From positions 17,989 to 81,988 of the forward strand of contig CAJTYW010000006.1 in NCBI GenBank assembly GCA_910583995.1: a stretch of DNA of 64,000 bases, given 5' to 3'. Origin of the DNA: an uncultured Christensenella sp. GTDB lineage: Bacteria > Bacillota > Clostridia > Christensenellales > UBA3700. Both the position numbers and the translations under genes were made by a program. Positions 9,488 through 41,399 of this stretch are shown in pieces; the first letter of the stretch is position 1; the number at the start of each line of letters is the position of its first letter. Under the pieces are notes generated by a model that had not been told where the DNA came from, ran no database searches, and worked only from the letters and a program-made list of their open reading frames with translations.

Positions 9488-9502
9488 TGTGACTCCTGCG
9501 TT

Positions 9503-10318: not shown

Positions 10319-10338
10319 AGCCGTTCGTTCCTCCTTTG

Positions 10339-11571: not shown

Positions 11572-11572
11572 A

Positions 11573-12886: not shown

Positions 12887-12972
12887 ATAAGTTCCGAATG
12901 TTTTACAAAATCCGCTGTTGATTTTGTTGTGGCAATCGGTATGTCATATACCGTTGCAATTCTCATTAGCGC

Positions 12973-17215: not shown

Positions 17216-17248
17216 ATCGGTCCTCCAATAAAATTTTTTATAACAATA

Positions 17249-19687
17249 CTATGAGTTCAGCTTTTTGCACAAATTCAAAATCCTACTCGCACACTTTTGT
17301 ACCGTAGCTTTTGCAACTTTCCCCGATTTAACTGCTTTTAACAACTCTTTATGCTGAAACTTATCTCCTGCCATAATTAAATCGTTTTCGGCGCAAATAG
17401 TTTCTCCCGCTACCGCTTGATCTTTTGCGACGCTTTGCCAATCGGTCATTACAACTCCGTTAAACCCGAATTCGCAACGTAGTATGTTTGTAATAAGGTC
17501 ATACGAACTGTTAACGTATGTACCGTTTACTTTATTGTAACTTGACATAACGCATTTCGGCTTTGCTTTTCTTACCGTTAGTTTGAACGCTTTAAGATAA
17601 ATCTCTCTTAACGCACGCTCATTAACTTCGCTGGACGATTTCATACGATTATCTTCCTGATTGTTACAGCAAAAATGTTTAATAGTGACTGCACAACGTT
17701 CATTACTCTGAACGCCCAACGTCAATGCGCTTGCCATTTCTGCGGTAAGCATAGGATCTTCGGAATAATATTCGTAATTTCTTCCGCAAAGAGGATGCCG
17801 TTGTATATTCATACCGGGCGCCAACCATATCCCTACTTTATATTGTTGCATTTCGCACGAGACAGCTATTCCGATTTTCCTAATTAATTCGGGCGAAAAC
17901 GTTTGCGCTTGCACCGTTGCGCTCGGCCATGCCGTACAATACTGATAAACAAGCTGCGCCTTTTTACTTGTTTTACTCCATAAGCGGTCTAAAAATCTAA
18001 ACAGTTTTTTAGCTTTCACTAAGTCCTGTGGCAATTTGCCGCCTGTTTTAATCTTGCCGTTGGGTTCAACGGCGTATTTCATCGAAATTCTTATTCCTGC
18101 AGGACCATCCGCCATAACGATGGGATGATATCCATATTTTTTACAAACCTTTGTGTCTATTTGTCCGCTTGCGCCGACAACGCCGGGTATTCCGCCGCTC
18201 ATCAAAGTTGGATCTCCAACACACAGACAAGTTAATTCTTTGGCGTTCATTTTTTTCGTTTCGGGCAAAATATCCACTTTGGGAGCATCGTAATTATTTT
18301 GAACAAACTGTATCGCATTTTCGTCCAAATGCAGAATATCGCCTACGGGTTCTTCTTCCCCAAACCGAACAGGTGCAGCAATTTCTTCAACTCTGCATTG
18401 TGCCAATTCAATCGGTTTGCATTTTTCTACAATAAATTCCTTATCGACCACAATAGTTGCGACTGGCATTGTATTACGAGAAGAGTTACCGACTCTGACG
18501 ATATAATTACCTTTTTCTAAAATGAAACAGGAACGCGTTTCGTCGTATGCGGCAAAATCTTTTAATTCAAACCCCAACGTTACCGTTCCGCATTCTCCAA
18601 CCGCTATCAAATCGGTTTTTGCAAAGGCGGCTAACTGCTGATATTCGCGTTTGATTTTTCCCGACGGGCAAGATAAATATATTTGAACGACCTCTTTACC
18701 CGCCGTTTTTCCTATATTTTCAACTTGTGCTTTTACCGTAACTTCCCCGCCCGATAATTCCGCCTTCGCTTTTATTTCAAATTCGGTATAGGAAAGCCCG
18801 TATCCGAAAGCATATTTAGGCTTGATATCGAATGTGTCAAAATATCTGTATCCGACGTAAATACCGTCTTTATAAAGCTCTCTGTCTGTGTTTCCGTCCA
18901 AATAACTGAACGAATCAGAGCAAGGAAGGTCTTGTAAATTTTTAGCCCAAGTTGCAGCAAGCTTTCCACAAAAATTTTGTTTTCCCAATAACAAATGCGC
19001 TAAAGCCAAACCTCCGTTTTGCCCTGCCTGCCCCATAAACACGACTGCGCCGAGCTTCATTTCGTGCAAAGGATTTAAGTCAATACATGCACCCGTATTG
19101 AGAACAAGTATGGTGTTTTTATAATGCTCCGAAATGAATTTAAGGTCGCGGATTTCTTTATCGTCAAAATTGTACTCGCCTTTCTTAACACGCCTATCCA
19201 TACCTTCGCCCGCCTGTCGTGTCAAAACGTAAAGTGCAGTATCCGTATCGGAATCTGCAACGTCGCGCTCGGTTATATCGCGTCCCGTGGGATAAACGAT
19301 AGGAAGCGCAATCGCATTCATCAAATCCCAAAATTGAAAAACATTATATTTTTTTGCTATTTGCTTGATTTTGGCATCGCGCTCCTCTTCACCGCGGTGC
19401 ATTTGTTCGTCACAAGCGTCCAACCACATCTTTGACGTAACCTGTAATCCGCACGACTCCAATCCTTCTTCGACAGAAACACTGTGACGGTTATTCACCT
19501 CCCCGCTTCCGGTACCGCATTTTGCCGTATGCCTTGCACCCGCGCCGAACAACGCTATTTTTTTACATTGCAACGGCAACGCGCCGTTATTTTCAAGCAA
19601 TACGATTCCTTCACAGGCGACTTCCAACGATAATTCCGAATTTCGTTGTTCCAGCTCGGAAACTGCTTCATTAAACTTATCGGTCAT
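17249..19687 (-). CDS. GH3 beta-glucosidase with reversed (circularly permuted) domain order
   Basis: 812 aa. The alpha/beta-sandwich domain (GIVLLENNGALPL, GQAGQNGG) and Fn3-like domain (EVVQIYLSCPSG) come first. The TIM-barrel domain (MADGPAGIRIS, KHFCCNNQE, nucleophile context VVMTDWQS) comes last. Confidence 0.85.
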   Translation of the reverse strand: MTDKFNEAVSELEQRNSELSLEVACEGIVLLENNGALPLQCKKIALFGAGARHTAKCGTGSGEVNNRHSVSVEEGLESCGLQVTSKMWLDACDEQMHRGEEERDAKIKQIAKKYNVFQFWDLMNAIALPIVYPTGRDITERDVADSDTDTALYVLTRQAGEGMDRRVKKGEYNFDDKEIRDLKFISEHYKNTILVLNTGACIDLNPLHEMKLGAVVFMGQAGQNGGLALAHLLLGKQNFCGKLAATWAKNLQDLPCSDSFSYLDGNTDRELYKDGIYVGYRYFDTFDIKPKYAFGYGLSYTEFEIKAKAELSGGEVTVKAQVENIGKTAGKEVVQIYLSCPSGKIKREYQQLAAFAKTDLIAVGECGTVTLGFELKDFAAYDETRSCFILEKGNYIVRVGNSSRNTMPVATIVVDKEFIVEKCKPIELAQCRVEEIAAPVRFGEEEPVGDILHLDENAIQFVQNNYDAPKVDILPETKKMNAKELTCLCVGDPTLMSGGIPGVVGASGQIDTKVCKKYGYHPIVMADGPAGIRISMKYAVEPNGKIKTGGKLPQDLVKAKKLFRFLDRLWSKTSKKAQLVYQYCTAWPSATVQAQTFSPELIRKIGIAVSCEMQQYKVGIWLAPGMNIQRHPLCGRNYEYYSEDPMLTAEMASALTLGVQSNERCAVTIKHFCCNNQEDNRMKSSSEVNERALREIYLKAFKLTVRKAKPKCVMSSYNKVNGTYVNSSYDLITNILRCEFGFNGVVMTDWQSVAKDQAVAGETICAENDLIMAGDKFQHKELLKAVKSGKVAKATVQKCASRILNLCKKLNS

Positions 19688-21657
19688 TAGTGTTTTTTCT
19701 CCTTTTCAGCGTACTTTTCAAGTAAATCCTGCATTTTTTTATAACTTGCGTTGCCTTTTTCAAGCTCAATTGCCCAAGCGGCGTCAATACGTTCCCGACG
19801 CCTTCTTGCTTTCTCTTTACGAGCGACAAGTTGCTGAGGTGTCAGTTTGGCAAGTTTGGCTGTCTGCTTTTCTTCCGCTGCTTTTAATTTTGCAGTTTGC
19901 TTTTCTTCCGCCAAACGTTTCTTTTCGGCTTCTTTTGCATTCTTTTCGAAAATTTGTCTGATATGCTTTTCAAGTTCCTCTTCGTAGTTTAATCCCTTCT
20001 TTTCACATTTGGATTTTAATTCCGAACGGAAAATTTCCTCTGCTTCTTCATCTGCCAACTGCTGATCCATCTCCAGCTGTACTTCTGGTTCTACCCAGAC
20101 TTTACCGCTCTTTTCACAAGCCTCTTTTTGACGTTCGCGTATTATCTTTTGCTTTCTTTCCAACGTCTTTTCGACACCGACAAACGCCAACAATACCGCA
20201 CTCAGTATTCCCGTAATAACTTCAAGTCCTACAAACAAAAACGATATGGCGTTTACAGTGCTTCTGGGCTGTTGTATACCTACGGTAAACGTACCGTCAA
20301 TCGCCATTTTGTAAGAGCTTAAATCTAATTGAGAGAGCCAACCGTTTTGTTCAAGGATAGCTTTTGCCTCTCCCAAATCCGTTACGTTGAGCGGTGGTAT
20401 ATATCCGCTTGCATTCAGAGCCGCATTCAGAATGGCAAGTCCAACCCCCAACAATACGATTGTTATCGTAGAATAAATCGACATTGCCAAGCTATCGCTT
20501 CTGAATCCCGTCTTCCATTCCAAATGGTCAAATGAATCGGAAAATAGCGACATAAAGATATAAGCGCACGGCAGCCCACCGATATTCTTGATAAACTGTC
20601 CTATTAAAACCACAATCAAATTTGTAGGAACCATCCAACAAATCGCGCTACCGACGGCATAAAAAACAAATCCCGCAACAGTCACATTTTTCTTGCCGAA
20701 TTTTTTAGCAAGCGGCCATACGGCAAAGATACCGATACCCATTGGAATACCGCCGATTACGGAAATTAAGGTTTGCGTTATACCATCGTTATATGTACCT
20801 AAAACATAGTTACAATAATATATTAAAGCACTGTTTTTCAAAGTTCCACCCAATGTATAAATCAAGCTATACACTAAAAGCAAAACAATATATTTATCTG
20901 AAAACACAGCTTTTATTTGCATTTTATAAGGAATTTTAATGGTTTCTACTTTTCCTAATTCTTCAGTAACTCTCTCTTTTGTAAAGTAATACTCCAACAG
21001 CATAACAGGCAACATAATGATACATAAAACCGACATTACGCTTATCCACAATGTTTGGCTGGATCCTATCATCGGTAAAATTACCATAGGGAAAATTAAT
21101 GCCGCTATTATGCCCGTAACCATAATCGTAGCCACTTGATTGAAAACTGCCAAAACACCCCTCTGTGACGAGTTACGGGTAGAAAGAGGAACCATCATAT
21201 TGTGGCTCATATTATAAATCGTATAGGCAAATGAAAAGAAAAGATTATACGAAATTATTACCCATACAGCTTTCCAGCTTATTGACATATTAGGCACGAG
21301 ATAAAGCAACATACCCGTAATTGGAACTAAAAATGCGGATAACAACAAATACGGACGGGCTTTCCCCTGTTTATTTTTTGTCCGATCGATAATCCAACCC
21401 ATAATAAAATTAGTTATGGCGTCTAAAATTTTAGAAAAAATAGGAAACACTATAAGGAATGCTCCACCCCACAAACCGCCGAGTTTCAAAACGTCAGTCC
21501 AATACTGATTTAGAAACGAGCCCCCTAAAACAGCATTTATTAACAATGCACCGCACGGACCGAGTAAATAGCCAAGCCATTTTTCTTTCCCCGTTATGTT
21601 TCTTGAGCGTATGCGACTGTCAAAGATACGACCATTCAACATTTTACCTGTTGTCAT
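19687..21657 (-). CDS. GPH/MFS glycoside:cation symporter with a ~170-aa charged C-terminal extension
   Basis: 656 aa, with about 12 hydrophobic segments in the first ~485 aa followed by a Lys/Glu-rich tail. A TAATG overlap joins it to the downstream GH3 gene. Confidence 0.8.
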
Positions 21658-24096
21658 TTATTTTTCCTCCTTTTCTTTTGGCAATTTCGGAACTTTTATT
21701 TTTGTGCAAAAGCACTTGATTCCTTTGAATAAATGTCCGTTTGCCATATTAACAAACCCTTGTGCAAAGTTATACGGACAATTTGTACCCGCAGACATCG
21801 ACATTGTAATAATCGAGTTGCTTTCGAGTATTCTTTTTAAGAACATTGCGCCTTTTATCTTGTTATCTCGCTCCGCTCCTTCGGGTAGTTTTTTCGCCTT
21901 TTTCATATCCTTTTTCGCTACGGACAACACGGCGTTATAAAGGATCTTACCCATAAACGTCGCTCGCATATCCGTAAAACGACTTTCAAGCCTGATAGGT
22001 TTTTTCGGTGGAATTGCGGGAATTTTCAATCCCGACATTTTCTCAAATAGTGATTCGCTCATTGTATCGAAAGTCGCCGCGCCATATACTGTATTGATTT
22101 CTTCCGAATACGGCATAACCGCATTATCTCCGTCAAGTGTTACCGTCTGACTCAATCTCATGGTTTGGCAGTCGGAACAGAGCTGCAATTCATATTCGCC
22201 GCCTTCCGTTGCCCATCGGTTTTCTTTTACATTCCAATAACGCAAATCGTCTTTCTTTACCGTAATCGCTACTTTTTTGCTTTCGCCTGCTTTCAGATAA
22301 ACTTTCGTAAAGCCTTTCAGTTCCTTTAACGGCTTGAACACTCCTTGCGGTGCTTTGACATATAGCTGCACGATTTCCGCGCCATCATATTTTCCGTTAT
22401 TGACAACCTCGCACGACACTTTGTATTCTTCGTTGTTTTCTTCGATTTGCATATCCCAATAATCAAAAGTTGTATATGACAGCCCGTATCCAAAAGGATA
22501 GCGCACTTCTTTGTTCGCTGTCAGATAATAACGATAACCAACAAATAAGCTCTCTTTATAAATTTCGTTTACAGTCTTTGAAAAATCATTTCCGAACGGC
22601 ACGTCTGCATAGCTCTTTACCCAAGTTTCGGCGAGTTTACCGCAAGGCGATTTTACACCGAACAACAAATTATAAGTTGCCGTTCCACCGTTTTGCCCCG
22701 GCAAATACATATTGAGTATTGCGTTTACACGATCCGCAAACGGCAATTCCATAGGCGAACCACTGTATAATATAACCGTTATCTTTTTGCCCGCTTTGAT
22801 AAGTGCATCAATTAACGCAAGTTGGTTTGCGGGCAACTGCATATTTTCTCTGTCGCCACCCTCACTCTCAACGTAATCGGTCAACCCTGCAAAAACAAGA
22901 ACTTTATCATATCCCTTTGCTTTTGCCACAGCTTCCACTATAAGTTTATCATCCGCTTCGAGCTTGTTTTCTGCATATCCACGGCAAAATTCATAAGCGA
23001 CTTTATGTTCGTCAAATGCAATTTTAGGCGTAGAAAGGAATGTTGGATTTATCATCGAACTACCTGCGCCTTGATAGCGCATCTTATCGAACAAATCTCC
23101 GACAACAAGAACTCTCTCGCTTTTATCAAGCGGCAATACACCGTCGTTCTTTAACAGCACCGCGCAATCTTCCGCAATCTCGGCGGCAAGAGCATTGTGC
23201 GCTTCCCAATCGACATCAATACCTTTTTGATTATTTTCGTAACGCCGAACAAGGCGCAGGATATTTTCCACCGCCTTATCTAAATCTTCCATTTTAAGCG
23301 TTCCGTTCTCTGCTGCATCTATTATCAATTTGCGACAAATTGCCGTATCTCCTGGCATTTCCAAATCAAGACCTGCCGATACACCTTTCACTCTATCGTG
23401 CGTTGCGCCCCAATCGGACATAACCACACCGTCAAAACCCCACTCATTGCGAAGTACGTCTGTAAGCAACCATTTATTTTCACAACAATATTCGCCGTTA
23501 ATTTTATTGTAAGCGCACATCATTGTGTGCGGTTTGCTTTCCTTAACAATAATTTCAAAGACTTTAAGATAGATTTCGCGAATGGCTCTCATATCGCATA
23601 CGGAATCGCCCATAAAGCGGAAATTCTCGGCATTGTTAAGCGCAAAGTGCTTTACCGAAACGCCACAACCTTTCGACTGAACGCCGTTTACTTCTGCCGC
23701 TCCCATTCTACCTGCAAGCAAGGGATCTTCCGAAAAATATTCAAAGTTTCTTCCGCATAATGGATTACGCTTAATACAAGCGCCCGGACCGAGCAAAATG
23801 TCTATTCCGTAATGCAACATTTCCTCGGCAATCGCTTCGCCCATTTTGTATGTATTGTCGGGATTCCAACTCGACGCCGTGCTTACTGCCGTAGGAAAGC
23901 AAGTTGCAGGTTCGCTGCCCGCAACTCCGTTATCTCCGCCCTCTTTTTGTACGCGAAGTCCGTGCGGACCGTCTGACATTCTTGCAGACGGAATACCAAG
24001 CCTCGGCACGGGATTAGTGAACATAAAGTCCACACCTGCTAAAAGTGCCGCTTTTTCTTCTATTGTTAAATTTTCCAATAAACTATGAATATCCAT
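21658..24096 (-). CDS. GH3 beta-glucosidase (canonical domain order)
   Basis: 812 aa with MSDGPHGLRV, KHFALNNAE, nucleophile context VVMSDWGA, then the sandwich domain and Fn3-like EIVQLYVKAP. Confidence 0.9.
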   Translation of the reverse strand: MDIHSLLENLTIEEKAALLAGVDFMFTNPVPRLGIPSARMSDGPHGLRVQKEGGDNGVAGSEPATCFPTAVSTASSWNPDNTYKMGEAIAEEMLHYGIDILLGPGACIKRNPLCGRNFEYFSEDPLLAGRMGAAEVNGVQSKGCGVSVKHFALNNAENFRFMGDSVCDMRAIREIYLKVFEIIVKESKPHTMMCAYNKINGEYCCENKWLLTDVLRNEWGFDGVVMSDWGATHDRVKGVSAGLDLEMPGDTAICRKLIIDAAENGTLKMEDLDKAVENILRLVRRYENNQKGIDVDWEAHNALAAEIAEDCAVLLKNDGVLPLDKSERVLVVGDLFDKMRYQGAGSSMINPTFLSTPKIAFDEHKVAYEFCRGYAENKLEADDKLIVEAVAKAKGYDKVLVFAGLTDYVESEGGDRENMQLPANQLALIDALIKAGKKITVILYSGSPMELPFADRVNAILNMYLPGQNGGTATYNLLFGVKSPCGKLAETWVKSYADVPFGNDFSKTVNEIYKESLFVGYRYYLTANKEVRYPFGYGLSYTTFDYWDMQIEENNEEYKVSCEVVNNGKYDGAEIVQLYVKAPQGVFKPLKELKGFTKVYLKAGESKKVAITVKKDDLRYWNVKENRWATEGGEYELQLCSDCQTMRLSQTVTLDGDNAVMPYSEEINTVYGAATFDTMSESLFEKMSGLKIPAIPPKKPIRLESRFTDMRATFMGKILYNAVLSVAKKDMKKAKKLPEGAERDNKIKGAMFLKRILESNSIITMSMSAGTNCPYNFAQGFVNMANGHLFKGIKCFCTKIKVPKLPKEKEEK

Positions 24097-24209
24097 AATT
24101 TCGATACTCCTATTTCACTTACATATAAATTATAACAAATTTCGTGCTCTAATTTCTTGCATAATTGTTCTATTTCGGTTATAATTGTATTGTTTTTAAG
24201 GAGACCACA

Positions 24210-25418
24210 ATGGAAACAATTGATTTGAATTATCTTTGCACCGTAATTAGTAGCCTTTCAGGCGTACCAATAAGAGTATTTGAGAATAATAAGCAAACCT
24301 TTTATTATTCTATCGTTAATTTGCCCAAAGACCCTATTACACCCTATAAAACTAAAATTTTCGATATAGTAGACAATGTCGGATATTTTATAACTCCGAA
24401 TTTTAATTACTACGGAATAGTAAACTGTCCGCCACATAAAATTGTCATCGGACCAGCACGCCAAACAGAAAATAATGAACAGAACCTAAAAGAATTAGCA
24501 TTTAGATGCGACGTGCCTTCCGACGATATTGATGATTTTGTTTCTGGAATGAAAAGTATTGTCAAAATGCCGTTAAATAGCATAATGCAAATACTTTGTA
24601 CCATAAATTACGTACTTAACAAAGAAAAATTGTCGTTAGAAGATATAATGATTTATGATGATGAACAGCAAAATATAAAAGAGATACTTGAATCTGATCG
24701 AGCAAACCAAAACTTTAATTCAGATCTTGCCGAAATTCAATCACAACAAGCAACACATAACACCCTCGCGCTTGAACAGACATTGGTAAATATAGTCCGT
24801 AAAGGCGATACGGCCGCACTCCGAGAATGGATTGCAAACGCCCCCGCGGTACGTGGCGGCACTCTCGCATCAGAGCAAATGCGACAAATGAAAAATATGT
24901 TTATAGTTACCGCTACACTTGTTTCCCGTGCAGCCATTCGTGGGGGTATGGACATAGAAGATGCTCTTTCTCTCTCCGACGCTTATATTCAAAAATGCGA
25001 ACTTGTATATAGCGTTGATCGCATTACAAATTTGCAATACCATATGGTTCTCGACTATACAGAGCGCGTTGAAAAATTAAGGCTTGGCAAGTCCCCATCA
25101 AAACTTGTTACGGATATAAGCAATTACGTTCAACACCATCTATCCGAACCCGTTGATATTGAGACTCTTGCAAAGGCAATGTATTTAAGCAGAACCAGAC
25201 TGTCGGTAAAATTCAAAGAAGAAACAGGCATGACACTTACCGATTTCATCCTAAAAGAAAAAACCGAAGAAGCAAAACGTCTTCTTCGGTATACCGATAA
25301 AACCTTACCCGCCATCAGTGCTTATTTAGGATTTTCATCCCAAAGTCATTTTTCAAGAGCTTTTCGCAAATATGCGGAATTTTCTCCTAGTGAGTACAGA
25401 AAAAAATATAATTCTTAA
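24210..25418 (+). CDS. AraC family transcriptional regulator
   Basis: C-terminal AraC HTH (ISAYLGFSSQSHFSRAFRKYAEFSPSEYRK). The start is placed at ATG 24210, preceded by AAGGAG, rather than the alternative-codon start at 24165. It is divergent from the GH operon. Confidence 0.85.
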   Translation: METIDLNYLCTVISSLSGVPIRVFENNKQTFYYSIVNLPKDPITPYKTKIFDIVDNVGYFITPNFNYYGIVNCPPHKIVIGPARQTENNEQNLKELAFRCDVPSDDIDDFVSGMKSIVKMPLNSIMQILCTINYVLNKEKLSLEDIMIYDDEQQNIKEILESDRANQNFNSDLAEIQSQQATHNTLALEQTLVNIVRKGDTAALREWIANAPAVRGGTLASEQMRQMKNMFIVTATLVSRAAIRGGMDIEDALSLSDAYIQKCELVYSVDRITNLQYHMVLDYTERVEKLRLGKSPSKLVTDISNYVQHHLSEPVDIETLAKAMYLSRTRLSVKFKEETGMTLTDFILKEKTEEAKRLLRYTDKTLPAISAYLGFSSQSHFSRAFRKYAEFSPSEYRKKYNS

Positions 25419-25688: not shown

Positions 25689-25740
25689 ATAAAAAATAAG
25701 CACTCACTCTCCGTTAAGGATTGTAAGTGCTTATTTTGTT
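25689..25740 (-). terminator. orphan minus-strand intrinsic terminator (ancestral rlmD terminator)
   Basis: A perfect 10-bp stem, AATAAGCACT (25695-25704) with AGTGCTTATT (25726-25735), is followed on the minus strand by a T6 run. No intact gene lies upstream of it. It sits 46 nt downstream of the rlmD tail remnant. Confidence 0.55.
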
Positions 25741-25781
25741 GATTATCGCCTCTATTCTGCCTCCCAAAGTCATTACTTTGA

Positions 25782-25818
25782 CTATTTTTGTTTAAGACAA
25801 ACTAGAGTTTCGACATGG
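25782..25818 (-). pseudogene. displaced 3' tail of a RumA/RlmD-type methyltransferase gene
   Basis: The minus strand reads CAT GTC GAA ACT CTA GTT TGT CTT AAA CAA AAA TAG = HVETLVCLKQK*. The intact gene at 45740 ends HIETLVCLDRKEKK*. No homology is seen further upstream. Confidence 0.5.
25795..25818. repeat. left copy of the 24-nt direct repeat bracketing the defence island
   Basis: agacaaacTagagtttcgaCatgg here versus agacaaacCagagtttcgaTatgg at 45762-45785, 22 of 24 identical. Confidence 0.6.
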
Positions 25819-26223
25819 CATACTCCTGTTAAAGGTATAGAAAACGCACAAATTCATAATGTGTTACAATGAAAAGTCTAGCCAAAAAAATAAAATATCA
25901 AGCCTTTACAATTCCTTTCAATTCAATGAATTGCTGTTGAAAATATTCTTAATAATATTTAGACTTTCTTCGCAAATGGTCGTTCCAAAGGGTTTCTTTC
26001 TATTCACGCCCAATTTTGATTCATAAAAGTCATCTACAATTTTTATTTTCTAACATTTCCAAAAACATAATCAATTAAAAACTCTACTTTGTCCATCTGG
26101 CATGCTATTTACATAATCTTTTTTAATGTATTATTATTAACTGTTGCTAGCGCATATATTTTGTTATTATTTTTATTTTTTCAGGTGTTGCACCTGATAG
26201 TATACTTTATCTTATTGGATAAT

Positions 26224-27420
26224 TTAATTGAAATCAATTAAATTATCCATATCATATATTGCTTCTTGTTCTAATTTACAATTATTCTCTAACATAAAAT
26301 CAATTAAAACTCCATGTTCTACAAACTTTTCTTTTAACCGTTTTAAATTGATTTGATCATTATTAGATAATTTGGACCAATAATTTTTATGGGTAAGCAT
26401 TGTTTCAATATCCATATTGTACATTTGAAAAGGCATCTCTGATTTCGCTTTTAAATTATTATAAATATTTATTCCACCATAATCAATATCTCCATAATGA
26501 AAATATTTTAGATGATTATTCCCAGCGTAGATTTTTTGTAAAAATATATTTTTATCATTATTATGATACCCTGCCAAATATACAATTGTTGCATTTGTTT
26601 TATTAAAACTTAAATATTTTGTATAATTTTCAATCGTAAATAATTCATCATCATGCACAATTATTTTATCCAATTTATTTATATCTTTTGCACAAATACC
26701 TATTCCATATTGGAAATCAGCTATGTTTATTTTACTTCCATTACAAAATACTACTTCAACATTTCCTTTTAAATTAATAAATGTCGGTGTTTTAACAATA
26801 TTATAATAAGAACATAGATCCTCAAAATTCTCAAATATTATTTCTCCAAAACGATTGAATAATGTTAAAAACACACTGCCAAGTTTTTCAAAAGTTTTAG
26901 AATCATTAAATACTTTTTTACTGAAATTCCTGAGCAATATTTCATCTTTTTCTCTACATATCTCATTGATAGCGTTAATATTTCGTTCAATCTCATTCTC
27001 ATGAATATAAGAAAATTTCTTTGCTAAATCAATGTTAAACTCTAAGTATTTCTGCGCTATCATACAATTTTCACATCGCTCCAAATCTTGCAAAAAACTC
27101 AAATGTTTTCCAAGTGCAATTTCAGGCAATTCTTTACCCAAATACTCATAGATTTCATTAATTTTGTCATAATTAAGTTCAACTTCAAGCAATTCAGCAC
27201 AATTTCGCTTACAAAACACAAAACCTAAATTTTCAATTTCTTTTACTGATTCTTCTATTTCTGGTCTTATATCAAAAGCATTATCGCAATGATATTTGGC
27301 GAACACTTTACTTTTGTCTGTATTAAGTGCGATTTTTCTTCTTTTTGATGCTGTTCCGTTTTTTAGAGAATTTTCATACTTTTTTAACAAACTATTCAGT
27401 AATTCAACATTAAAATTCAT
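26224..27420 (-). CDS. jetD: Wadjet JetD (DUF3322 + Toprim-like DUF2220 nuclease subunit)
   Basis: 398 aa with the Toprim-type glutamate context LFTIENYTKY and DxD context HYGDIDYGGINIYN. It lies 2 nt after jetC. Confidence 0.8.
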   Translation of the reverse strand: MNFNVELLNSLLKKYENSLKNGTASKRRKIALNTDKSKVFAKYHCDNAFDIRPEIEESVKEIENLGFVFCKRNCAELLEVELNYDKINEIYEYLGKELPEIALGKHLSFLQDLERCENCMIAQKYLEFNIDLAKKFSYIHENEIERNINAINEICREKDEILLRNFSKKVFNDSKTFEKLGSVFLTLFNRFGEIIFENFEDLCSYYNIVKTPTFINLKGNVEVVFCNGSKINIADFQYGIGICAKDINKLDKIIVHDDELFTIENYTKYLSFNKTNATIVYLAGYHNNDKNIFLQKIYAGNNHLKYFHYGDIDYGGINIYNNLKAKSEMPFQMYNMDIETMLTHKNYWSKLSNNDQINLKRLKEKFVEHGVLIDFMLENNCKLEQEAIYDMDNLIDFN

Positions 27421-27422
27421 AA

Positions 27423-30400
27423 TTATTCCTTCACTTGTGCTCTAATTTTCATAACATTATTGTCTTTTACCACAACAATTTTTGTATCAATACTCAAAAA
27501 TATGTCTTTTGCCTTTGTATCTGGAACAGCTATCATCACTTGTATTTGCAATCTATTAAAATACTCTATCATAGATTTAACTCTTGGAGCATCCATCTTG
27601 TCAAATGCTTCATCCAAAAATACCAAACAAGCAGAAGATTTGGTTCTACCACGATTTTCATAAGATGAAATTTGATTGAACGCTGCAGCTATAATAACAT
27701 AAAACGGATTTTGATTTTCTCCTCCACTTTTACCTCCAACGACATCATTGTAAGAAAATCTATTGCCATTTTTATCAGTAATTTCTATATCATAACTCAA
27801 AAAATTTCTATAATCAGTAAATTTTCTCAACATTTTTTCTTCTTTTTCCGAGTTATCGTCTCTTGTCAAATCAGTAAACAAATCATCTAACAATTCTTTA
27901 TTTTTAGCACTTAATCCTTCATCCAACAATGATTTACATTCATAATTTTCATCGCTTATAAAAATATCATAATATGGTGCAAACTCTTTAATTTTGCTTT
28001 TTTCAACAATTATCTTATATCTTTCTTCTGTTTCACCAAAAGGTTGCAATTTTAACACTTTGTTTAACTGCTCGATATTTTTTCTTTCTTGAAGGATATT
28101 TTTTCTTATAGATATTATGTATTTTTCTTGGAAATCATTTTTGGCTTGGCTCAAAACTTCTATCGCTTTATTTTCATATTTTGGCAAATCATACGAACAA
28201 ATTTTGTTATATTCTTGCAAGTACCCATTGATGTTTTCAATGCAAACCATTTGTTCAAAATTGTATAATGTTTTATACTCCTGCATAGCTGATAAAACAT
28301 TTTTTTCGTTATTATTCATTTTATTTTCAAGACTCTTAATCTCGCTTTTTATATCGCCAACTTTAGCATATTGTTGCGCAAAACTATCAAATCCAATCAT
28401 TATTGAATCATCTTTAATCAAATTTGCATATTTTTGTTCTTCTTCAACAATTTTTTCTCCTATATCTTTACTTCGCAATTCAGCTGTGTTTTGTTTTTTC
28501 TGAATATCTTCAATTAACTTACTATAAGATTTTTTGCTATCAAAACACTCTTTTAGTTCTTTTTCATAATCCTCTTTCTTTTCAATTTTTTCAGCCAAAT
28601 CATGAGTATCCAATGCGTTGAAATCATCAATCAATTTCTCACAAATAAGACTAGTATCATCATACTCTTGCCAATGATTTGAATTCATCAATAGCCTTTG
28701 GCAATTGCTTTTACTTTTAAGATTGATTTTAGCTTGAATTTGAAACAATTGTTCACTGTACTCAGATCGTAATAGATTTTTATTTTTTATTTCTGCTTTA
28801 ACCTGTTCCAATTGTATTAAAATAGATTGCGAACCAATATATGGTGTCTCCCAAACAGCTGATTTTGTCTGCCTAGCCGCCTTATTTTTGTACACCATAA
28901 CTGTTTTTGTTATTGCGGATTCATAATTTTTTAATTCATTTTCATTTGCTACACAAATTACTCTACCAAGCAAATAATTTGCATATTTAGCTGCCCTATT
29001 GTCGCTTGGTTGTAATTTTTGTGCAAGTGAATTTTTGTCAGGCACAATATCTACAATCTTTTTAGTGTTAACAAGGCCTACACCATATATTTTCTTCTCT
29101 TTTTTAAATTTTTCATAAGCATTTAATGCAATATCATAATATTCTTCTGGCACAAAAATATCAAATCTTTTTGTATTCAAATATCCTTCTATAGCATTAC
29201 GCCATTCCTCCTCGCCTTGTTTAATTTCTAGCAGATTGCAAAATGGTATTGGTGTAATTTTTACACCTGTTTTTTTATAAATTTCCTGTGAAATAACTTC
29301 AATCAAATTTGTTACAGATGGCTTAAAAACTGGAGCGCCTTGCTCTAATGCTCGTTGTTTCTTCATCAATTCATCTAAATCTTCTTCAACAGCAACTTTT
29401 AAATTGTTCAAATTATTTTTTTCAATTCCAAGCTCATCAAATTTTTGTTCTAATGCTTTTGAATACTCTTGCAATTTTGGCTGAAATTTGTTAAAATCAT
29501 CTCCGTTGTCAAATCTTATATATGCCAATTTGATTTCCAATAATTTTGCGAGTTCTAGCTCATTATCAATATCTTTTTGATATTGCCTTATGCTCTCTTT
29601 TATGGTTTTTAACTTTTCTTCATTTTCTTTAATTTTGTCAGCTAAATATTTGTATTCAGTCATTTGAACATCAGAATTCATTTGAAACAGTATATCTTTA
29701 ATCTCATCAATACGTTTTTCCAAATACTCTTCTTCTTTCTTTTTACTTTCAACTTCCGTTTTTAGACGATAAAATTCACGCGTATATTTTTCTTGTTCTA
29801 TTTTTCTTTTTTCAATTGTTTTTTGGCACTCCAAAACTTGCAATTTGCGCACTATGTCCTGACACTTGTAATACTCGTTCGCATTGTCATTAACTTTTTT
29901 AAGGATCGCGAGTTTCTTTTTAGAATCCTTAATATTTGTAACATAATGTCTATATTCCCTAATTGTATCTCTAATGCTATCCAAATTAATATTTTTTTCT
30001 GGCAACAAAAAATCAAATATCAATTGGTCAAGTGAATAATCAGCCTTGAATGCAATAGCTTTAGGCAAAAGTTCTAAATACTTATCATTTTCAAGCCCTA
30101 ACTTAATTCCTATACTATTTCTTATTTCACTCAATTTACCAGTAAACTTACGAATATCCATTTTTCTATCCGTGCAAAATTTATCCAATTGTTTATAATT
30201 TTTAATACTATTAGTATTTTCATCAAAAAACAAGCCATTTTCCATGTTTTGCTGGTCAATGCAATAAAAATGTTGGCTAGCTTTAGGATCATTTTCATAA
30301 AGTTCAAATACACACCCCAATAAAAATGGTTTTAGCGTGTACTCATCAAAAAACTCAAGCTGAATATGCGAAATAATATTTGTATCAGGTCTCAAACAAT

Positions 30401-30632
30401 CTTTATTGCTAATAGTTCCACGCATATATGTTTCAACAGTTCTTGTGCCTTTGTCACGCGCGGATTGGTTGAACTTAATTTTCCCGCCACTAATAATAAA
30501 ACAGATAGCATCAATCAAAGTTGATTTTCCTGAGCCAGTACGACCTGTAATCAAAACATTTTTATTAATTTCAACTGTTTCATTAAAATATCCATGCCAA
30601 TTTATAAGTTTAATCTTCTTTAATACCTTCAT
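27423..30632 (-). CDS. jetC: Wadjet JetC (SMC-like ATPase)
   Basis: 1069 aa with Walker A GRTGSGKSTLIDAI, a long coiled-coil middle, the signature-like GGKSGGENQ and Walker B LVFLDEAFDKMD. Confidence 0.85.
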   Translation of the reverse strand: MKVLKKIKLINWHGYFNETVEINKNVLITGRTGSGKSTLIDAICFIISGGKIKFNQSARDKGTRTVETYMRGTISNKDCLRPDTNIISHIQLEFFDEYTLKPFLLGCVFELYENDPKASQHFYCIDQQNMENGLFFDENTNSIKNYKQLDKFCTDRKMDIRKFTGKLSEIRNSIGIKLGLENDKYLELLPKAIAFKADYSLDQLIFDFLLPEKNINLDSIRDTIREYRHYVTNIKDSKKKLAILKKVNDNANEYYKCQDIVRKLQVLECQKTIEKRKIEQEKYTREFYRLKTEVESKKKEEEYLEKRIDEIKDILFQMNSDVQMTEYKYLADKIKENEEKLKTIKESIRQYQKDIDNELELAKLLEIKLAYIRFDNGDDFNKFQPKLQEYSKALEQKFDELGIEKNNLNNLKVAVEEDLDELMKKQRALEQGAPVFKPSVTNLIEVISQEIYKKTGVKITPIPFCNLLEIKQGEEEWRNAIEGYLNTKRFDIFVPEEYYDIALNAYEKFKKEKKIYGVGLVNTKKIVDIVPDKNSLAQKLQPSDNRAAKYANYLLGRVICVANENELKNYESAITKTVMVYKNKAARQTKSAVWETPYIGSQSILIQLEQVKAEIKNKNLLRSEYSEQLFQIQAKINLKSKSNCQRLLMNSNHWQEYDDTSLICEKLIDDFNALDTHDLAEKIEKKEDYEKELKECFDSKKSYSKLIEDIQKKQNTAELRSKDIGEKIVEEEQKYANLIKDDSIMIGFDSFAQQYAKVGDIKSEIKSLENKMNNNEKNVLSAMQEYKTLYNFEQMVCIENINGYLQEYNKICSYDLPKYENKAIEVLSQAKNDFQEKYIISIRKNILQERKNIEQLNKVLKLQPFGETEERYKIIVEKSKIKEFAPYYDIFISDENYECKSLLDEGLSAKNKELLDDLFTDLTRDDNSEKEEKMLRKFTDYRNFLSYDIEITDKNGNRFSYNDVVGGKSGGENQNPFYVIIAAAFNQISSYENRGRTKSSACLVFLDEAFDKMDAPRVKSMIEYFNRLQIQVMIAVPDTKAKDIFLSIDTKIVVVKDNNVMKIRAQVKE

Positions 30633-31236
30633 CTATATCCTCTTCTTTCTTAGTGCTATTAGAAAATTCGTTTATCATTTGTTGCAATTCGCTCAAACTA
30701 TTCTCTATCACAAGCAATATTGTAGGCAATATCTCAATTGTCATTTCCATGCTGAATTTATCAAAATAATCTACAATTTTGTATTTTTTTAAATTTCTCA
30801 AAGAATCCTCATAATTTTTGTCATATCTTTTTTCCGCATCAAAAATTTGAGTACTTTTCATTTCAAAATCTACTTCTTCCAAAGTTGTATAAATCTTGTC
30901 AATATTTGAAGTTGTTTTACTTTGTTTGTAATATAATAATCTCAATACTAAAATCAACACAGTATCAAATTTTTTAAATTTTACTTTATTTCTGTCCACA
31001 ATTGATATCAATCTAATCACGCCTAAGCTTTCATCTTTCACACATTCGTATTCTATGTACTTCAAATAATCATTGATTAATTTAAAATTTTCTATAACAA
31101 AGTAGTAATCATTTTTGTCTGTTTCTTTAGATTTGACCAAAAATGTTTCATTAAGCAATTTGTTGCATACCCTTGAAAATGTATTTTTATCAGTGGTATT
31201 AAATTGTCCATACTCATAAATAAAATTATTTCCCAT
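30610..31236 (-). CDS. jetB: Wadjet JetB (DUF4194, kleisin-associated KITE-like subunit)
   Basis: 208 aa. AAGGAG SD lies inside the end of jetA. It overlaps jetA by 11 nt and jetC by 23 nt. Size and position fit JetB. Confidence 0.75.
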   Translation of the reverse strand: MGNNFIYEYGQFNTTDKNTFSRVCNKLLNETFLVKSKETDKNDYYFVIENFKLINDYLKYIEYECVKDESLGVIRLISIVDRNKVKFKKFDTVLILVLRLLYYKQSKTTSNIDKIYTTLEEVDFEMKSTQIFDAEKRYDKNYEDSLRNLKKYKIVDYFDKFSMEMTIEILPTILLVIENSLSELQQMINEFSNSTKKEEDIDEGIKED

Positions 31237-32653
31237 AATAATTTTTCTCCTTTGCTATTTCGAAATCTTTTATTCTATAACCATTTTTGCTAATATATTC
31301 TTCTTTATAATCAATAGAATAACTTGCTTCTTTGTCATTGCCATATAATTCCACTAAAAACAATTTAAACAACTCATTATCGTCAGCAATAGGAATATCA
31401 CACAACTTTAATATTTCTTTGCCTTTCAACAACTCATCCACATAACTATTTATCTTGTATATTGAATATTCGTCTTCCTTAAACAATTCTTTAAAGCACT
31501 CTTCCATTCTTTTTTCATCATACTCTGGAACACTATTCGTATAAGATTCTATATGAGTTTTTCTTTTTCGAGGAGTATACAATGAATTATTTGAAACTAT
31601 ATCCTGCTTATATAATGCAATTTCAAATTCTTTATCATCTTCAATATCCTTAAAATTCCTTAATATTGATACAATTTCACCCTCTATATCTTTGGTATTA
31701 TTCATTATGAATTCCATCTTTTTTCTGGCTGACTTCAAATATTTGTTATTTTTCTTATCAATCTCATCCAGAATATTAGATATATTTTCATATTGATGTT
31801 TAACATAATTGATTTTTTTATAGATTTCCGATTCTGCAAATAAAAGCAAATCATCTGTTTTTTCTTTTCCAGAATATTTCACTTTCATATAATTATCAAT
31901 CAATTTTGGGATATTATTGTAATCTTTCAATCTATCCAAATAATTTATTATATCCGTTGAATAGCGATATGGATTGTCAACAGTATTAATATTCCTAAAT
32001 GCCCTCATAACAACTTGGTCGTTGTATTTATACAAAACATTATCCATGATCTCATCAGGAGTCATCTTTTTGTTTTTCAAAAGTTCATCTATGTATTTTT
32101 TTATTGTAGAGTTTAGAGTACGCAAACTACTCATCAAATCTATAGTCGCTTTATGAACTTGCTCTAATGTTCCTATACCTTCTGCATAATCAAAATCCTT
32201 CAGCAATTTATATGTTGTAGCAACAAATCCCGTATACTCTAATCTTGAGATTTCCTGCGCTTCTAACTCTTGCATTGCTTTCAAAATAACACTGGCGCCA
32301 TCATTCAAAGAATACAATTGTTTAAAATTTTCTGTCTCCACATCTAACCAATTGCACCTAACAAACAACCGAATTTTTGCATTTGTTTTGTCTGCATCAC
32401 TTTTTTCTGTAATATCTAGGTCATCCTCATCAACAATTTCAGCATGTTGCCTTACTTCCCAAAATTCATTTATACAATTAACTAAAATTTCTCTTTCAAT
32501 AGAAATAACAGTCTCATCGTTGTTAAAAAGCTCATAAATTCTAACAAGCAATGCATAATTAATTTCCCTATCTTTGCTTGCAAAAACTTTGAAAAAATTT
32601 TGTCCTACAATATCAAATATCAATTTTCCCCTCCGGATATTATTTAAATACAT
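31226..32653 (-). CDS. jetA: Wadjet JetA (DUF3375, kleisin-like subunit)
   Basis: 475 aa, first gene of the jetABCD order. ATG 32653 has no SD. An in-frame TTG at 32623 is preceded by GGAGGGG with a 4-6-nt spacer, depending on which G residues are counted as the core, and may be the true start. Confidence 0.75.
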   Translation of the reverse strand: MYLNNIRRGKLIFDIVGQNFFKVFASKDREINYALLVRIYELFNNDETVISIEREILVNCINEFWEVRQHAEIVDEDDLDITEKSDADKTNAKIRLFVRCNWLDVETENFKQLYSLNDGASVILKAMQELEAQEISRLEYTGFVATTYKLLKDFDYAEGIGTLEQVHKATIDLMSSLRTLNSTIKKYIDELLKNKKMTPDEIMDNVLYKYNDQVVMRAFRNINTVDNPYRYSTDIINYLDRLKDYNNIPKLIDNYMKVKYSGKEKTDDLLLFAESEIYKKINYVKHQYENISNILDEIDKKNNKYLKSARKKMEFIMNNTKDIEGEIVSILRNFKDIEDDKEFEIALYKQDIVSNNSLYTPRKRKTHIESYTNSVPEYDEKRMEECFKELFKEDEYSIYKINSYVDELLKGKEILKLCDIPIADDNELFKLFLVELYGNDKEASYSIDYKEEYISKNGYRIKDFEIAKEKNYYGK

Positions 32654-32683
32654 TTTATTAGTTAATTAGAAGTTCTAAACCAT

Positions 32684-35600: not shown

Positions 35601-35773
35601 TTTTCTTCATAGGCATCAAACATGCTAATCTGTTGATTACCATCTGACTTTTTCTTTATGCCTAAATCTCTTGTATATCTCACCATATCGCAGTAGGGTT
35701 GTCCTGCAAATACTTTGCAAATATTAAATACTGCATCTTGTTGATATGGTTGTGTTTTAAATTTGAATTTCAT
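32684..35773 (-). CDS. res: type III restriction enzyme Res subunit (SF2 helicase + C-terminal PD-(D/E)xK nuclease)
   Basis: 1029 aa with motif I METGTGKTYVYI and motif II LIIDEPQKLGG. The C-terminal nuclease context is DYAPDWAIAF...IYFVAETKGS. The N-terminus KFKTQPYQQDAV is typical of Res. Confidence 0.85.
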   Translation of the reverse strand: MKFKFKTQPYQQDAVFNICKVFAGQPYCDMVRYTRDLGIKKKSDGNQQISMFDAYEENDDGFENAKILLDESEILNNIQDIQKTNNYKVSDKLVGGLGKCSLDIEMETGTGKTYVYIKTIFELNKLYGWSKFIIVVPSIAIREGVKKSFSMMEDHFMEQYGKKANYFIYNSKRLSELDSFASSNKIQVMIINSQAFNARGKDARRIDMVLDEFQSRKPIDVVAKTRPILIIDEPQKLGGEATQTSLKKFNPLLNMNFSATHKKQHNLVYCLDALDAYNKSLVKKIQVKGFEIKNLRGTNGYMYLQEIVLSPKKPPMAKLEIEVSYNKSINRETRILEVEKNLYYVSHEMEQYKNGYTISDINPFTNTVTFLNGEVIHVGEVVGDISDKDIRRIQIRETIVSHFEKEEMLYNKGIKCLSLFFIDEVANYRDYSQPDEKGEYARIFEEEYTNALNEKLSVIETPYTKYLSKIDTKDTHKGYFSIDKKTGRMIDSNEKKGEGSEDISAYDLILKNKERLLSFDEPTRFIFSHSALREGWDNPNVFQICALKPGGDSAVAKRQEVGRGLRIAVNMLGDRVDLHYCKDRTTFLNVNKLTVVATDSYKDFVADIQKDIKANLADRPTKATIEYFMDKVVSDGTSQIVVDKDMASDIQSYLRFSGYLNKENHLTDKYFEDKANNTFKEMPEILAPYNESIHKLVQGIFDEKVLDDIIADGRKPAVKENPLNDNFYKKEFQKLWEQINHKYAYTVAFDSEELIKKAIITINEKLFVSELKYTITVGEQRKTMDELQVNQGASFGVSKTSTKAVKNAASNNAKYDLVGKIKDGTNLIRKSIVRILQGIRADVFGRFKVNPEEFISKVIKLINEQKATMIVDHITYNITDGKYDNDIFTVNQAKIDFNKAFKAEKAIQDYVSTDGSAEKSVERKFAEDLDAANEVCVYAKLPRTFKIPTPVGDYAPDWAIAFNDNMGIKHIYFVAETKGSMESLELRGIEKAKTECVRKLFNDLRLAENVRYEVVDTYENLLNKMKEID

Positions 35774-35791
35774 ATCCGTATCCTTTTTTAT

Positions 35792-39233: not shown

Positions 39234-39242
39234 AAATTTATT

Positions 39243-39312
39243 TTATCTCTCCATTTTCTGCAAATCTTTTTTCATTTTGTTGCACTTTATCGTTTAACTC
39301 AAACTTTTTGTT
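39243..39312 (-). pseudogene. remnant of the 3' end of a second DUF4391 gene
   Basis: Hand alignment to 41430-41498 gives about 56 of 69 nt identical, with one 1-nt indel and a 19-nt exact core tgcaaatcttttttcattt. It encodes NKKFELNDKVQQ(frameshift)MKKDLQKMER*, versus NKKIELNDRVRQMKKDLQMLEN* in the intact gene. Confidence 0.7.
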
Positions 39313-39319
39313 CTTCCCG

Positions 39320-40198: not shown

Positions 40199-40211
40199 AT
40201 CTTTCTATACC

Positions 40212-40445: not shown

Positions 40446-40542
40446 AATAATTCCTTCCTTTTTTTAATTATCTAACATTTATAAACTTTTTTTGTCATTT
40501 TAATTTTATAATTTAATTCCATTCTTATATTTAAAATAATTT

Positions 40543-41379: not shown

Positions 41380-41399
41380 TAAACTTTACCTCAATTGCA

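Follow-up and report, generated by a model that had tools for sequence, protein, structure and literature searches.

The 64,000-nt stretch of DNA analyzed here (the window) carries an intact rlmD gene, also named rumA, on its minus strand at 45740-47089. The gene codes for a 449-aa protein that ends in HIETLVCLDRKEKK, contains TRAM and tRNA_U5-meth_tr domains, and scores 357.5 bits against the TIGR00479 rumA/RlmD model (cut-off 183.55 bits). A second copy of the gene's 3′ end lies about 20 kb away, at 25782-25817 on the same strand. We translated this region and found HVETLVCLKQK followed by a stop codon, with the His codon at 25817-25815 and the stop at 25784-25782. The translation bears out a first-pass annotation of this DNA, which had reported that the minus strand encodes HVETLVCLKQK and that this peptide matches the RlmD C-terminus. 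Extending the translation to 25782-25850 gave ...CAFSIPLTGVC-HVETLVCLKQK, with an in-frame stop 12 codons before the His codon. No rlmD-like sequence was found upstream of the orphan tail, either in this translation or in an alignment to relatives that have an empty site (described below).

The two tails share a 24-nt repeat (25795-25818 and 45762-45785) that is identical at 22 of 24 positions. The first-pass annotation had placed this repeat at the two borders, and our search of the window found it there. The annotation had also held that homology stops exactly at the repeat, which proved slightly too strict: the repeat is where the strong match lies, but weak similarity continues through the remaining tail codons. 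In a repeat search of the window, the pair could be followed over 49 nt (78% identity), and the two copies were found to lie 19,967 nt from each other. When up to three mismatches were allowed, the 24-mer occurred at just these two sites in the window, and two matches were found in 0 of 100 shuffles. Within the repeat, a core (TCGAAACTCT) is flanked by two mismatches that are diagnostic of the two copies (25803 vs 45770 and 25814 vs 45781).

The DNA between the two tails forms a defence island in which every gene lies on the rlmD strand (Table 1). In addition to the genes listed, it holds four ORFs without family matches. The GC content of the island is 24-33%, compared to 30-35% for the surroundings of rlmD and 36-46% for the AraC/rhamnose-rhamnoside cluster (9.5-25.4 kb). 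We searched the island ORFs of at least 60 aa (26224-45561) against Pfam, PADLOC, PHROGs, and NCBIfam and found no recombinase domain. No phage genes were found in the window's island, and no conjugation or mobilization module was found in it or in the related inserts examined. A plasmid search with the far end of the island (25782-26230) gave no match. All 24 contigs read that code for the exact RlmD carry the island, as do all 24 contigs read that code for the exact AraC.

Table 1. Coordinates of the island, its genes, and the features at its borders in the window.
Feature	Position	Strand	Basis
Predicted pre-insertion rlmD terminator, bidirectional hairpin for rlmD and convergent araC; now between jetD and araC	25693-25737		Folding; same place in empty-site relative
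Orphan rlmD 3′ end, resident tail ...(H)VETLVCLKQK displaced by insertion (attR, host side)	25782-25815	-	L046 alignment
TCGAAACTCT, same in both tail copies and empty site; twin at 45771-45780	25804-25813	-	Sequence comparison
Inserted island, 19,967 bp; not in L046, L047, L048	25816-45782	-	Two homology blocks overlapping on one tail; repeat spacing 19,967
Distal arm of island, ~65 nt conserved non-coding, ends ...GCCA (attR, element side)	25816-25882	-	Six-arm alignment
Wadjet operon jetABCD	26224-32653	-	JetA, DUF4194, SbcC-like, JetD_C; PADLOC JetD1
jetD	26224-27420	-	Pfam/PADLOC domains
jetC	27423-30632	-	Pfam/PADLOC domains
jetB	30610-31236	-	Pfam/PADLOC domains
jetA	31226-32653	-	Pfam/PADLOC domains
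Type III restriction enzyme (Res)	32684-35773	-	PDLC03647, E = 1e-284
Type III restriction-modification methyltransferase (Mod)	36499-38541	-	PDLC03634, E = 1e-204
Bro-N domain protein; PADLOC candidate PDC-S13; phrog_15286	40543-41379	-	Profile searches
DUF4391 protein	41430-42065	-	Profile search
Snf2-family helicase; best PADLOC match 'HKD+Snf2' candidate, also DrmD-like	42073-45561	-	Profile searches
Promoter-like site TTGACC-16-TATAAT, pointing into cargo genes	45603-45630	-	11/12 consensus matches
Element-borne terminator T1 behind substitute rlmD tail	45666-45702	-	Folding
rlmD/rumA (23S rRNA U1939 C5-methyltransferase)	45740-47089	-	TIGR00479, TRAM + tRNA_U5-meth_tr, empty-site alignment

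We compared the window to close relatives that lack the island. A protein search identified an RlmD (P0002) of 446 aa that is 96% identical to the window's and ends in HIETLVCLKQK. It is encoded on contigs L046, L047, and L048, which come from three independent assemblies. On these contigs there is no island: 364 nt after rlmD comes a convergent AraC gene, and next to it the rhamnose cluster. Positions 1-11353 of L046 align with window positions 57092-45737 at 96.7% identity, and positions 11305-21341 align with 25818-15770 at 93.9% identity. The 49-nt overlap of these two blocks is the single rlmD tail. In a three-way alignment, the empty site follows the window's attL up to ...CCCATATCGAAACTCT and its attR from TCGAAACTCTAGTTTG... 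on, through the hairpin and for 10 kb. The hairpin at 25.7 kb directly follows the L046 tail, and the orphan tail is identical to the L046 tail except at 25814, where the codon specifies Val in the window and Ile in L046.

Relative to L046, L047, and L048, these alignments show the window to carry a 19,967-bp insert in the last codons of rlmD. They also show the resident tail and its bidirectional terminator to have been pushed 20 kb away and left as a scar. The first-pass annotation had proposed that the ancestral rlmD ended at 25.7 kb and that an element with its own 3′ end and terminator had inserted there. It had named as the informative comparison a set of island-free relatives in which an uninterrupted rlmD is followed by the 25.7-kb hairpin, and the three empty-site contigs have exactly this arrangement, apart from the Ile in HIETLVCLKQK, and support the proposal. 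By this comparison the scar is a textbook insertion footprint, clear but ordinary. We also considered two other assignments of what is native and what is foreign. The tail and terminator at 45.7 kb resemble the native ones of sister species, so that the orphan copy might have been the foreign one; the empty-site contigs rule this out. The high-GC rhamnose cluster was considered as the real island and was ruled out for this insertion, since the cluster is also present in the empty-site relatives.

Both borders carry a predicted terminator. The hairpin beside the orphan tail (25693-25737) is separated from the orphan stop by 44 nt. Folded on the minus strand, it consists of a 15-bp stem and an inner 3-bp stem followed by UUUUUU, and a 106-nt stretch containing it folds with an MFE of -30.6 kcal/mol (z = -5.4). 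It also folds on the plus strand (z = -3.2). A simple terminator scan missed this hairpin because of its long loop. The first-pass annotation had described a terminator 3′ of the orphan tail with no gene to terminate. The hairpin is real, but it is not jobless, as two genes still run toward it, araC on the plus strand and jetD on the minus strand. Behind the substitute tail, the T1 hairpin (45666-45702) has a folding energy of -18.7 kcal/mol (z = -5.2), and a U-run comes after it. T1-like hairpins were seen only 3′ of rlmD tails in the fetched loci (about 0.87 Mb), including at the native rlmD terminator of a sister species. This distribution ruled out the idea that T1 is a dispersed repeat, and it hints that the near-end module of the island originated by capture from a host. 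When both junction regions were scanned against Rfam, the only matches were hairpins far below threshold.

The comparison to the empty site allowed us to place both island junctions to within about ten bases. The CA dinucleotide at each junction (25817-25816 and 45784-45783) is ambiguous between the two partners. As read from the alignment, the part of rlmD that comes after the His-codon CA (45782 to 45740) is supplied by the insert, and the junction most likely lies at this CA, at the edge of the 24-nt repeat. The repeat would then likely reflect the likeness of an element-borne rlmD tail copy to the resident tail rather than a duplication made by the insertion. On this reading, with the boundary at or next to the His-codon CA, the G at 25814 would be a polymorphism of the resident tail.

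The end of rlmD is variable among related bacteria. Loci L001-L006, which represent the closest species and come from uncultured Christensenella/Christensenellaceae MAGs that are mostly from mouse gut, have the same gene order upstream of rlmD as the window and differ right after the rlmD stop. L002 contains a 5.1-kb restriction-modification island (methylase, DUF4062, ResIII) between an intact and an orphan tail, and L005, L049-L051, and L054 are empty sites matching this island. At least eight different C-termini (DRKEKK, DRKEQK, NRKEQK, ERKYQK, ERKK, TLK, ICLKRKQPK, and KQK) occur among RlmDs that are more than 90% identical to the window's and to P0002. The HIETLICLKRKQPK tail is also found on RlmDs that are just ~50% identical. 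Varied tails on near-identical RlmDs are the pattern expected if the tails travel with inserts.

The near end of the island recurs in front of other cargo. The near-end module (the substitute tail and T1, down to about 45622) is 98.7% identical to that of L083-L092, which are strains of the same species. In these strains the module gives way to a lone Sel1-repeat gene and an arm, and then to a decayed orphan tail (GCAGTATCAAAACTCCGTTTTGTCTTGAGAGAG) and an ABC-transporter gene. In L003 the module is about 96% identical, though core genes are just ~76% identical, and it leads into a cluster of agr-like, radical-SAM, and ABC genes. The comparison on the attL side covered this module, which the L083 and L003 inserts have in common with the window. 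All three sequences are alike as far as the first hexamer of the promoter-like site at 45603-45630, and they diverge within or just after it. Inserts with like ends thus carry quite different cargo.

The distal end of the island is shared with prophages that encode large serine recombinases (LSRs). The window's arm matches its counterpart in the L002 island at 77% identity, and it matches the right ends of two LSR prophages, L063 and L078, at 76-83%. Six arms from different inserts could be aligned, with 29 invariant columns and a mean column identity of 77%, and each adjoins a resident tail. Three recombinase-less inserts have an arm: those of the window and L002, and the mini-island of L083, in which the Sel1-repeat gene is the sole cargo. 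We recovered further inserts through a DUF11 protein, which is encoded by the first gene of the native flank in sister species, and then through the recombinase. Almost all close RlmD relatives came from NCBI, ENA, and Logan. Searches of the JGI viral_contigs and metagenome_contigs collections, in which this clade is essentially absent, gave 0 matches to an arm-plus-tail DNA pattern and to a codon-degenerate pattern.

The LSR genes of these inserts range from intact to fragmented. In L063, holin and Mtd_N tail-fibre genes are followed by two intact LSR genes (496 and 538 aa), a TIR gene, a 245-aa ORF, the arm, the resident tail, and the native flank. L078-L080 contain phage structural genes, an LSR pair whose first member is frameshifted, the cargo of L062 (AbiH/kinase), the arm, and the tail, and their arm is 100% identical to that of L062. 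The inserts of L062, L064, and L065 contain UCP028583, AbiH, protein kinase, and DUF2971 genes, and after these a serine recombinase gene in fragments and an AAA_14/DUF4143 gene; L066, a short contig, covers the start of an L062-type insert. L063, L078-L080, and L062, with its degraded LSR, form what we read as a decay series. The LSRs of L063, L078, and L082 have Resolvase, Recombinase, and Zn_ribbon_recom domains, and a cargo-bearing interval of 2-6 kb separates the ends of the LSR genes from the arm. In the functional relatives, phage genes are present (tape measure, Mtd_N tail fibre, holin), and genes for conjugation are absent.

The boundary between arm and host DNA is also preserved outside this clade's rlmD site. 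A related LSR phage, L082, resides in a different host. Next to the GCCA at the end of its arm comes CGCGGAGACGTTGGTC, which codes for the H-A-E-T-L-V of a longer rlmD; read further, the same sequence (CGCGGAGACGTTGGTCGTG...) encodes H-A-E-T-L-V-V-L-S-K-K.... In L072 and L074, the L063 phage (94% identical) has the same GCCA end fused to unrelated DNA. The arm ends in ...CCA before host DNA in the window, L002, L062/L078, L063, L072, and L082, and in ...GCA at the decayed L083 site. The boundary is common to two backgrounds of rlmD, a longer rlmD, and a site outside rlmD. These comparisons tie the arm to LSR prophages at the same rlmD codon in at least three backgrounds, and they identify it as the right end of an LSR-encoding phage family whose boundary is placed at or next to the CA of the HxETLV His codon. 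We considered that the arm might be a gene remnant, as the arms of the window and L002 could be read as ending in LFIVTHYEFVRFLYL and LFIVAYYDLVRILYLW, respectively, before a stop, with synonymous CGT/AGA and CTA/TTA changes. About 20 codons upstream, each of the two has an in-frame stop, the frame is broken in L063 and L082, and no fetched locus contains an intact homologue, so this reading was rejected.

We propose that the island is probably a decayed or hitch-hiking derivative of this LSR phage family, which would target the HxETLV-coding motif of rlmD. The near end of the insert consists of its own copy of the rlmD tail (T-ATC-GAA...TAA, coding for ...HIETLVCLDRKEKK and a stop), a terminator, and a near-consensus promoter. 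Because the insert brings these three parts, rlmD stays intact and the cargo is insulated from it. In the proposed model, the arm and the tail copy together would constitute the putative attP of temperate phages that encode an LSR pair. The LSRs would recombine this attP with the HxETLV-coding sequence of rlmD, the predicted attB, with the exchange at the His-codon CA or beside it. The predicted junctions are ...CTATACCTTTAACAGGAGTATGCCA/TATCGAAACTCTGGTTTGTCTCGACC for attP and ...CCCAAACACTTCCCA/TGTCGAAACTCTAGTTTGTCTTAAAC for attB, with the slash marking the join. Since phage-type ends are kept in an insert that has no recombinase or phage genes, it would be either a decayed prophage or a cassette moved in trans. 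On the first option, a prophage would have decayed to an enlarged slot of defence cargo. On the second, the recombinase of a related phage would have moved a cassette that resembles a cis-mobilizable element (CIME).

Several observations weigh against the LSR model. The recombinase gene is absent from the island, and the role of an LSR here is deduced from sequence comparison. The intact prophages were compared at their right ends, and a tail copy with a terminator at their left ends is a prediction of the model. A long attP/attB similarity that restores the gene is more typical of tyrosine integrases than of LSRs. The near end could also be captured host DNA, given the likeness of T1 to the terminator of a sister species. 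By eye, we saw no clear dyad symmetry in attB or in the reconstructed attP.

We considered alternative accounts of the two borders. A chance match, or a remnant of a second, degraded rlmD copy, would suit so short a match, but we consider it close to negligible. The first-pass annotation had already judged chance unlikely, and the judgment stands: the shuffles gave no such pair, and L046, L047, and L048, which join both flanks exactly at the repeat, together with the absence of rlmD homology upstream of the orphan tail, refute this account. The polarity could instead be reversed, such that the island is the older state in the species and L046-type strains lost it by recombination between the tail copies. 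Precise excision would produce the hybrid tail of L046, which resembles attL on its left and attR on its right, and the island is present in every contig read with the exact RlmD or AraC. Yet sister species show this position both empty and occupied by different inserts, which implies that the site has been filled repeatedly, and we regard loss as improbable. Even an excision would imply a mobile insert at an att site and would leave the reading of the footprint unchanged. The main mechanistic rival to an LSR is a tyrosine recombinase acting in trans, from elsewhere in the genome or from a helper element, with a crossover within the shared TCGAAACTCT core. Such a crossover is how classical islands come to lie at the 3′ ends of tRNA and protein genes. 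An element that restores the 3′ end of a gene and matches its target at 22 of 24 nt is typical of that class, and the 10-nt core is identical between its two diagnostic mismatches. Genes for Xer-like tyrosine recombinases lie 1.5-2.3 kb downstream of rlmD in L001 and L005, and a phage-type tyrosine integrase gene lies about 3 kb past the junction in L082. Set against this, none of the arm-bounded inserts examined contains a tyrosine recombinase, and all three phage variants have an LSR pair 2-6 kb from the arm. In L072 and L082, the phage sequence also runs out at GCCA, no farther than the left edge of the core, which fits a cut at the His codon and not one in TCGAAACTCT. We therefore think a tyrosine recombinase an unlikely agent.

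Two further accounts concern how the island travels, and each strikes us as possible but doubtful. Homologous recombination may have brought it to this genome, with a fragment spanning rlmD, island, arm, and tail from a carrier strain replacing the resident allele after a site-specific step in another genome. The identity between the window and L046 is a mosaic, with stretches at 100% beside stretches at 81-90%. A 42-nt tract of rlmD (45806-45847), 22 nt upstream of the junction, has 12 differences from both L083 and L046, the two same-species haplotypes, and is partly L002/L003-like; site-specific recombination alone gives no explanation for it. The high identity of the near-end module in L083 and L003, despite the divergence of the L003 core, also favors import. 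Right of the junction, though, the window is L046-type from the first diagnostic base, and if the downstream flank of the donor differed, the right crossover would have been confined to the 24-37 nt tail. Import would still need an original site-specific insertion and would thus be a route of spread rather than an alternative origin. The other account extends the LSR model: the rlmD His codon might be a docking site for recombinase-less cassettes with standard ends (a substitute gene tail, terminator, and promoter on the near side and the ~65-nt arm on the far side), moved in trans by the tandem LSRs of resident or incoming phages. The cargo at this site ranges from Wadjet plus restriction-modification, through restriction-modification by itself, to a Sel1-repeat gene, and in L003, where the near end was seen, it may be an agr/RiPP cluster. 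If this were true, the system would be an LSR counterpart of CIMEs and phage satellites that swaps defence cargo between species.

We compared the island to known systems. Islands and prophages in the 3′ ends of tRNA, tmRNA, and protein genes carry a replacement 3′ end (Williams 2002, as cited in PMC4701971), typically with a tyrosine integrase gene beside the intact gene. The window resembles them in that the target is kept intact by an element-borne end, the displaced end forms a direct repeat at the far border, and relatives have an empty site. It differs in lacking an integrase, and the associated enzymes are serine recombinases. Hotspots of defence genes are known to adjoin the attachment sites of temperate phages and satellites, such as P2/P4. 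The intact relatives found here likewise hold variable defence cargo (TIR, AbiH/kinase) between the recombinase genes and the phage end. By comparison, the window's island would be such a slot enlarged to 20 kb, from which the phage is gone, and the host clade, recombinase, and target differ from those of P2/P4-type hotspots.

The rumA gene is a known target of serine integrases from conjugative and mobilizable elements in streptococci (PMC4701971) and from CTn5 of Clostridioides difficile (PMC4120198; see also PMC5704250). These elements have a single large serine integrase, insert at an internal site, place attR inside the integrase gene (PMC4701971), and are flanked by direct repeats of 2-21 bp. 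In vanG elements, about 100 rumA codons are replaced. Integration of the published elements alters the C-terminus and the reading frame (PMC4701971). The target gene (rumA being rlmD), the LSR class in related intact elements, and the exchange of the 3′ part of the gene are common to both cases. In contrast, the site described here is a His codon that precedes the stop by 11-14 codons, and the tail that replaces the original one keeps the frame and differs little from it. The attR of the island is intergenic, the arm is non-coding (no frame is kept across the six arms), and the rlmD frame is preserved. Where rumA elements carry conjugation or mobilization genes, the intact relatives of the island are prophages with two tandem LSR genes. 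Because an internal site, a changed frame and C-terminus, an attR in the integrase gene, and conjugation genes are all absent here, we do not file the island in the rumA-element family.

CIMEs provide a further parallel. They are decayed conjugative or mobilizable elements of the ICESt1/ICESt3 family, with tyrosine integrases, that show accretion at one att site (PMC5704250). Like CIMEs, the island keeps the attR and, as judged from its near-end module, the putative attL of a site-specific family and lacks genes for integration and transfer. The layers at this locus are apparently stacked at one regenerated target, and L062, with its fragmented LSR, represents a decayed intermediate. The functional relatives here differ in being phages with serine recombinases, and mobilization of the island in trans is putative. 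We conclude that the island is a CIME-like, att-flanked, recombinase-less derivative of a site-specific element, which is a known kind of element in a new host clade at a new gene-sparing site.

The locus thus presents a cleanly delimited 20-kb defence island (Wadjet, type III restriction-modification, an Snf2/DUF4391 pair, and a Bro-N candidate) in an uncultured mouse-gut Christensenellales-like host. What this analysis adds to the scar itself is the link to an LSR phage family and to several cassettes that have standard ends. Across species, the conserved HxETLV-coding end of rlmD is a repeatedly used target. If the candidate attP, attB, and LSR pair work, they would provide a gene-sparing LSR system potentially useful for engineering these hard-to-culture bacteria. 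For annotation, alternative RlmD C-termini in this clade indicate which insert is present.

Possible traces of an older insertion lie farther along the window. The region at 3111-6355 contains a frameshifted LSR gene (3258-4296) and an AAA_14/DUF4143 gene (4694-6115) and is 94.8% identical to part of the L062 insert, and phage tail genes are present at 7030-7867. Although KQK is the state immediately before the insertion, this tail probably belongs to an older inserted layer itself. Together with the hairpin and the AraC/rhamnose block, it may form the near part of an earlier, truncated serine-recombinase element; in that case the defence island would have integrated second, at a site that had been regenerated. 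Positions 2919-3119 are the last ~200 nt of an ABC-transporter gene that is complete in L083-type strains. In those strains, this gene is followed by genes for a sigma factor, a 402-aa protein, and a 223-aa protein, as in the window at 2752-288. Given this match of gene end and flank, the DNA from 3.1 to 45.6 kb is replaced or additional relative to L083-type strains.

The rlmD gene itself varies close to the island junction. At 12 positions of a 42-nt tract within rlmD (45806-45847), which lies 22 nt upstream of the junction, the window departs from the two haplotypes of its own species, that of L083 (a strain with another insert at this site) and that of L046 (an island-free relative), which are identical to each other at these positions. 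Some of the variants are shared with the species represented by L002 and L003, and the tract may be a short conversion tract brought in with the island. Farther upstream, the RlmD proteins of relatives (L002, L003, L004, L005, and L006) contain in-frame insertions of variable length, all at one point (residue ~368, window ~45986). These insertions measure ~63-66 nt in L002, L003, and L049 (an empty rlmD-site locus) and ~330 nt in L005, giving proteins of 467-582 aa compared with 446-449 aa here.

A mini-insert occupies the rlmD site in other strains of the window's species (L083-L092). It starts with the same substitute rlmD tail and terminator as the window's insert, followed by a single Sel1/TPR-repeat gene (367 aa), an arm, and a mutated orphan tail. 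A Sel1-repeat gene 87% identical to that of L083 lies immediately after rlmD in the related species L001.

The prophage type found at the rlmD site in the sister-species locus L063 also occurs elsewhere. L072 and L074 carry this prophage at 94% identity, with the same two serine recombinases; its end, at L072 13575-13660 and L074 5359-5445, has the same terminus (...GTGCCA) as in L063. Beyond the terminus lies unrelated DNA (AGTGTAATGGTC...), which precedes an ORF of 174 aa and a gene for a sigma factor. The prophage may have integrated here at a secondary site, or the tandem recombinases may provide a second specificity. In two species (L001 and L005), a XerC/XerD-like gene follows rlmD at a distance of 1.5-2.3 kb, within a 4.8-kb segment that is missing in L050, another empty-site locus; we found no tie between this gene and the rlmD insertions.

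Features of the window and of related loci
Feature	Locus	Positions
Island ORF, 235 aa	window	35792-36499
Island ORF, 230 aa	window	38541-39233
Island ORF, 292 aa	window	39320-40198
Island ORF, 77 aa	window	40212-40445
Mini-insert, ~1.5 kb, rlmD site	L083 (also L084-L092)	9243-10742
XerC/XerD-like tyrosine recombinase gene, 295 aa	L005	14059-14946
XerC/XerD-like tyrosine recombinase gene, 295 aa	L001	12879-13766
Large serine recombinase gene, frameshifted	window	3258-4296
AAA_14/DUF4143 gene	window	4694-6115
Phage tail genes	window	7030-7867
Rhamnose/rhamnoside utilisation cluster	window	9503-25418

Within the island, four ORFs adjoin or interleave with the type III restriction-modification genes. 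Searches of Pfam, PADLOC, and NCBIfam gave no significant match for any of them; the 230-aa ORF weakly matched a single PHROG of unknown function.

The rhamnose cluster to the left of the island encodes a RhaD-like aldolase, RhaA, an FGGY kinase, two esterases, a GH78 rhamnosidase, two GH3 enzymes, an MFS_2 transporter, and an AraC regulator. It was probably gained by horizontal transfer, because its GC content is 36-46% versus ~30% elsewhere. The island-free relatives L046-L048 likewise carry the cluster.

A remnant of an older mobile element spans window 2919-8300 and includes the frameshifted large serine recombinase gene, the AAA_14/DUF4143 gene, and the phage tail genes listed in the table. 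Positions 3111-6355 are 94.8% identical to part of another sister-species rlmD-site insert (L062 14160-17405). Next to this stretch lies a 3' piece of an ABC-transporter gene, 200 nt long (2919-3119); L083-type strains have the gene in full length. The arrangement suggests two stacked insertions and one deletion.
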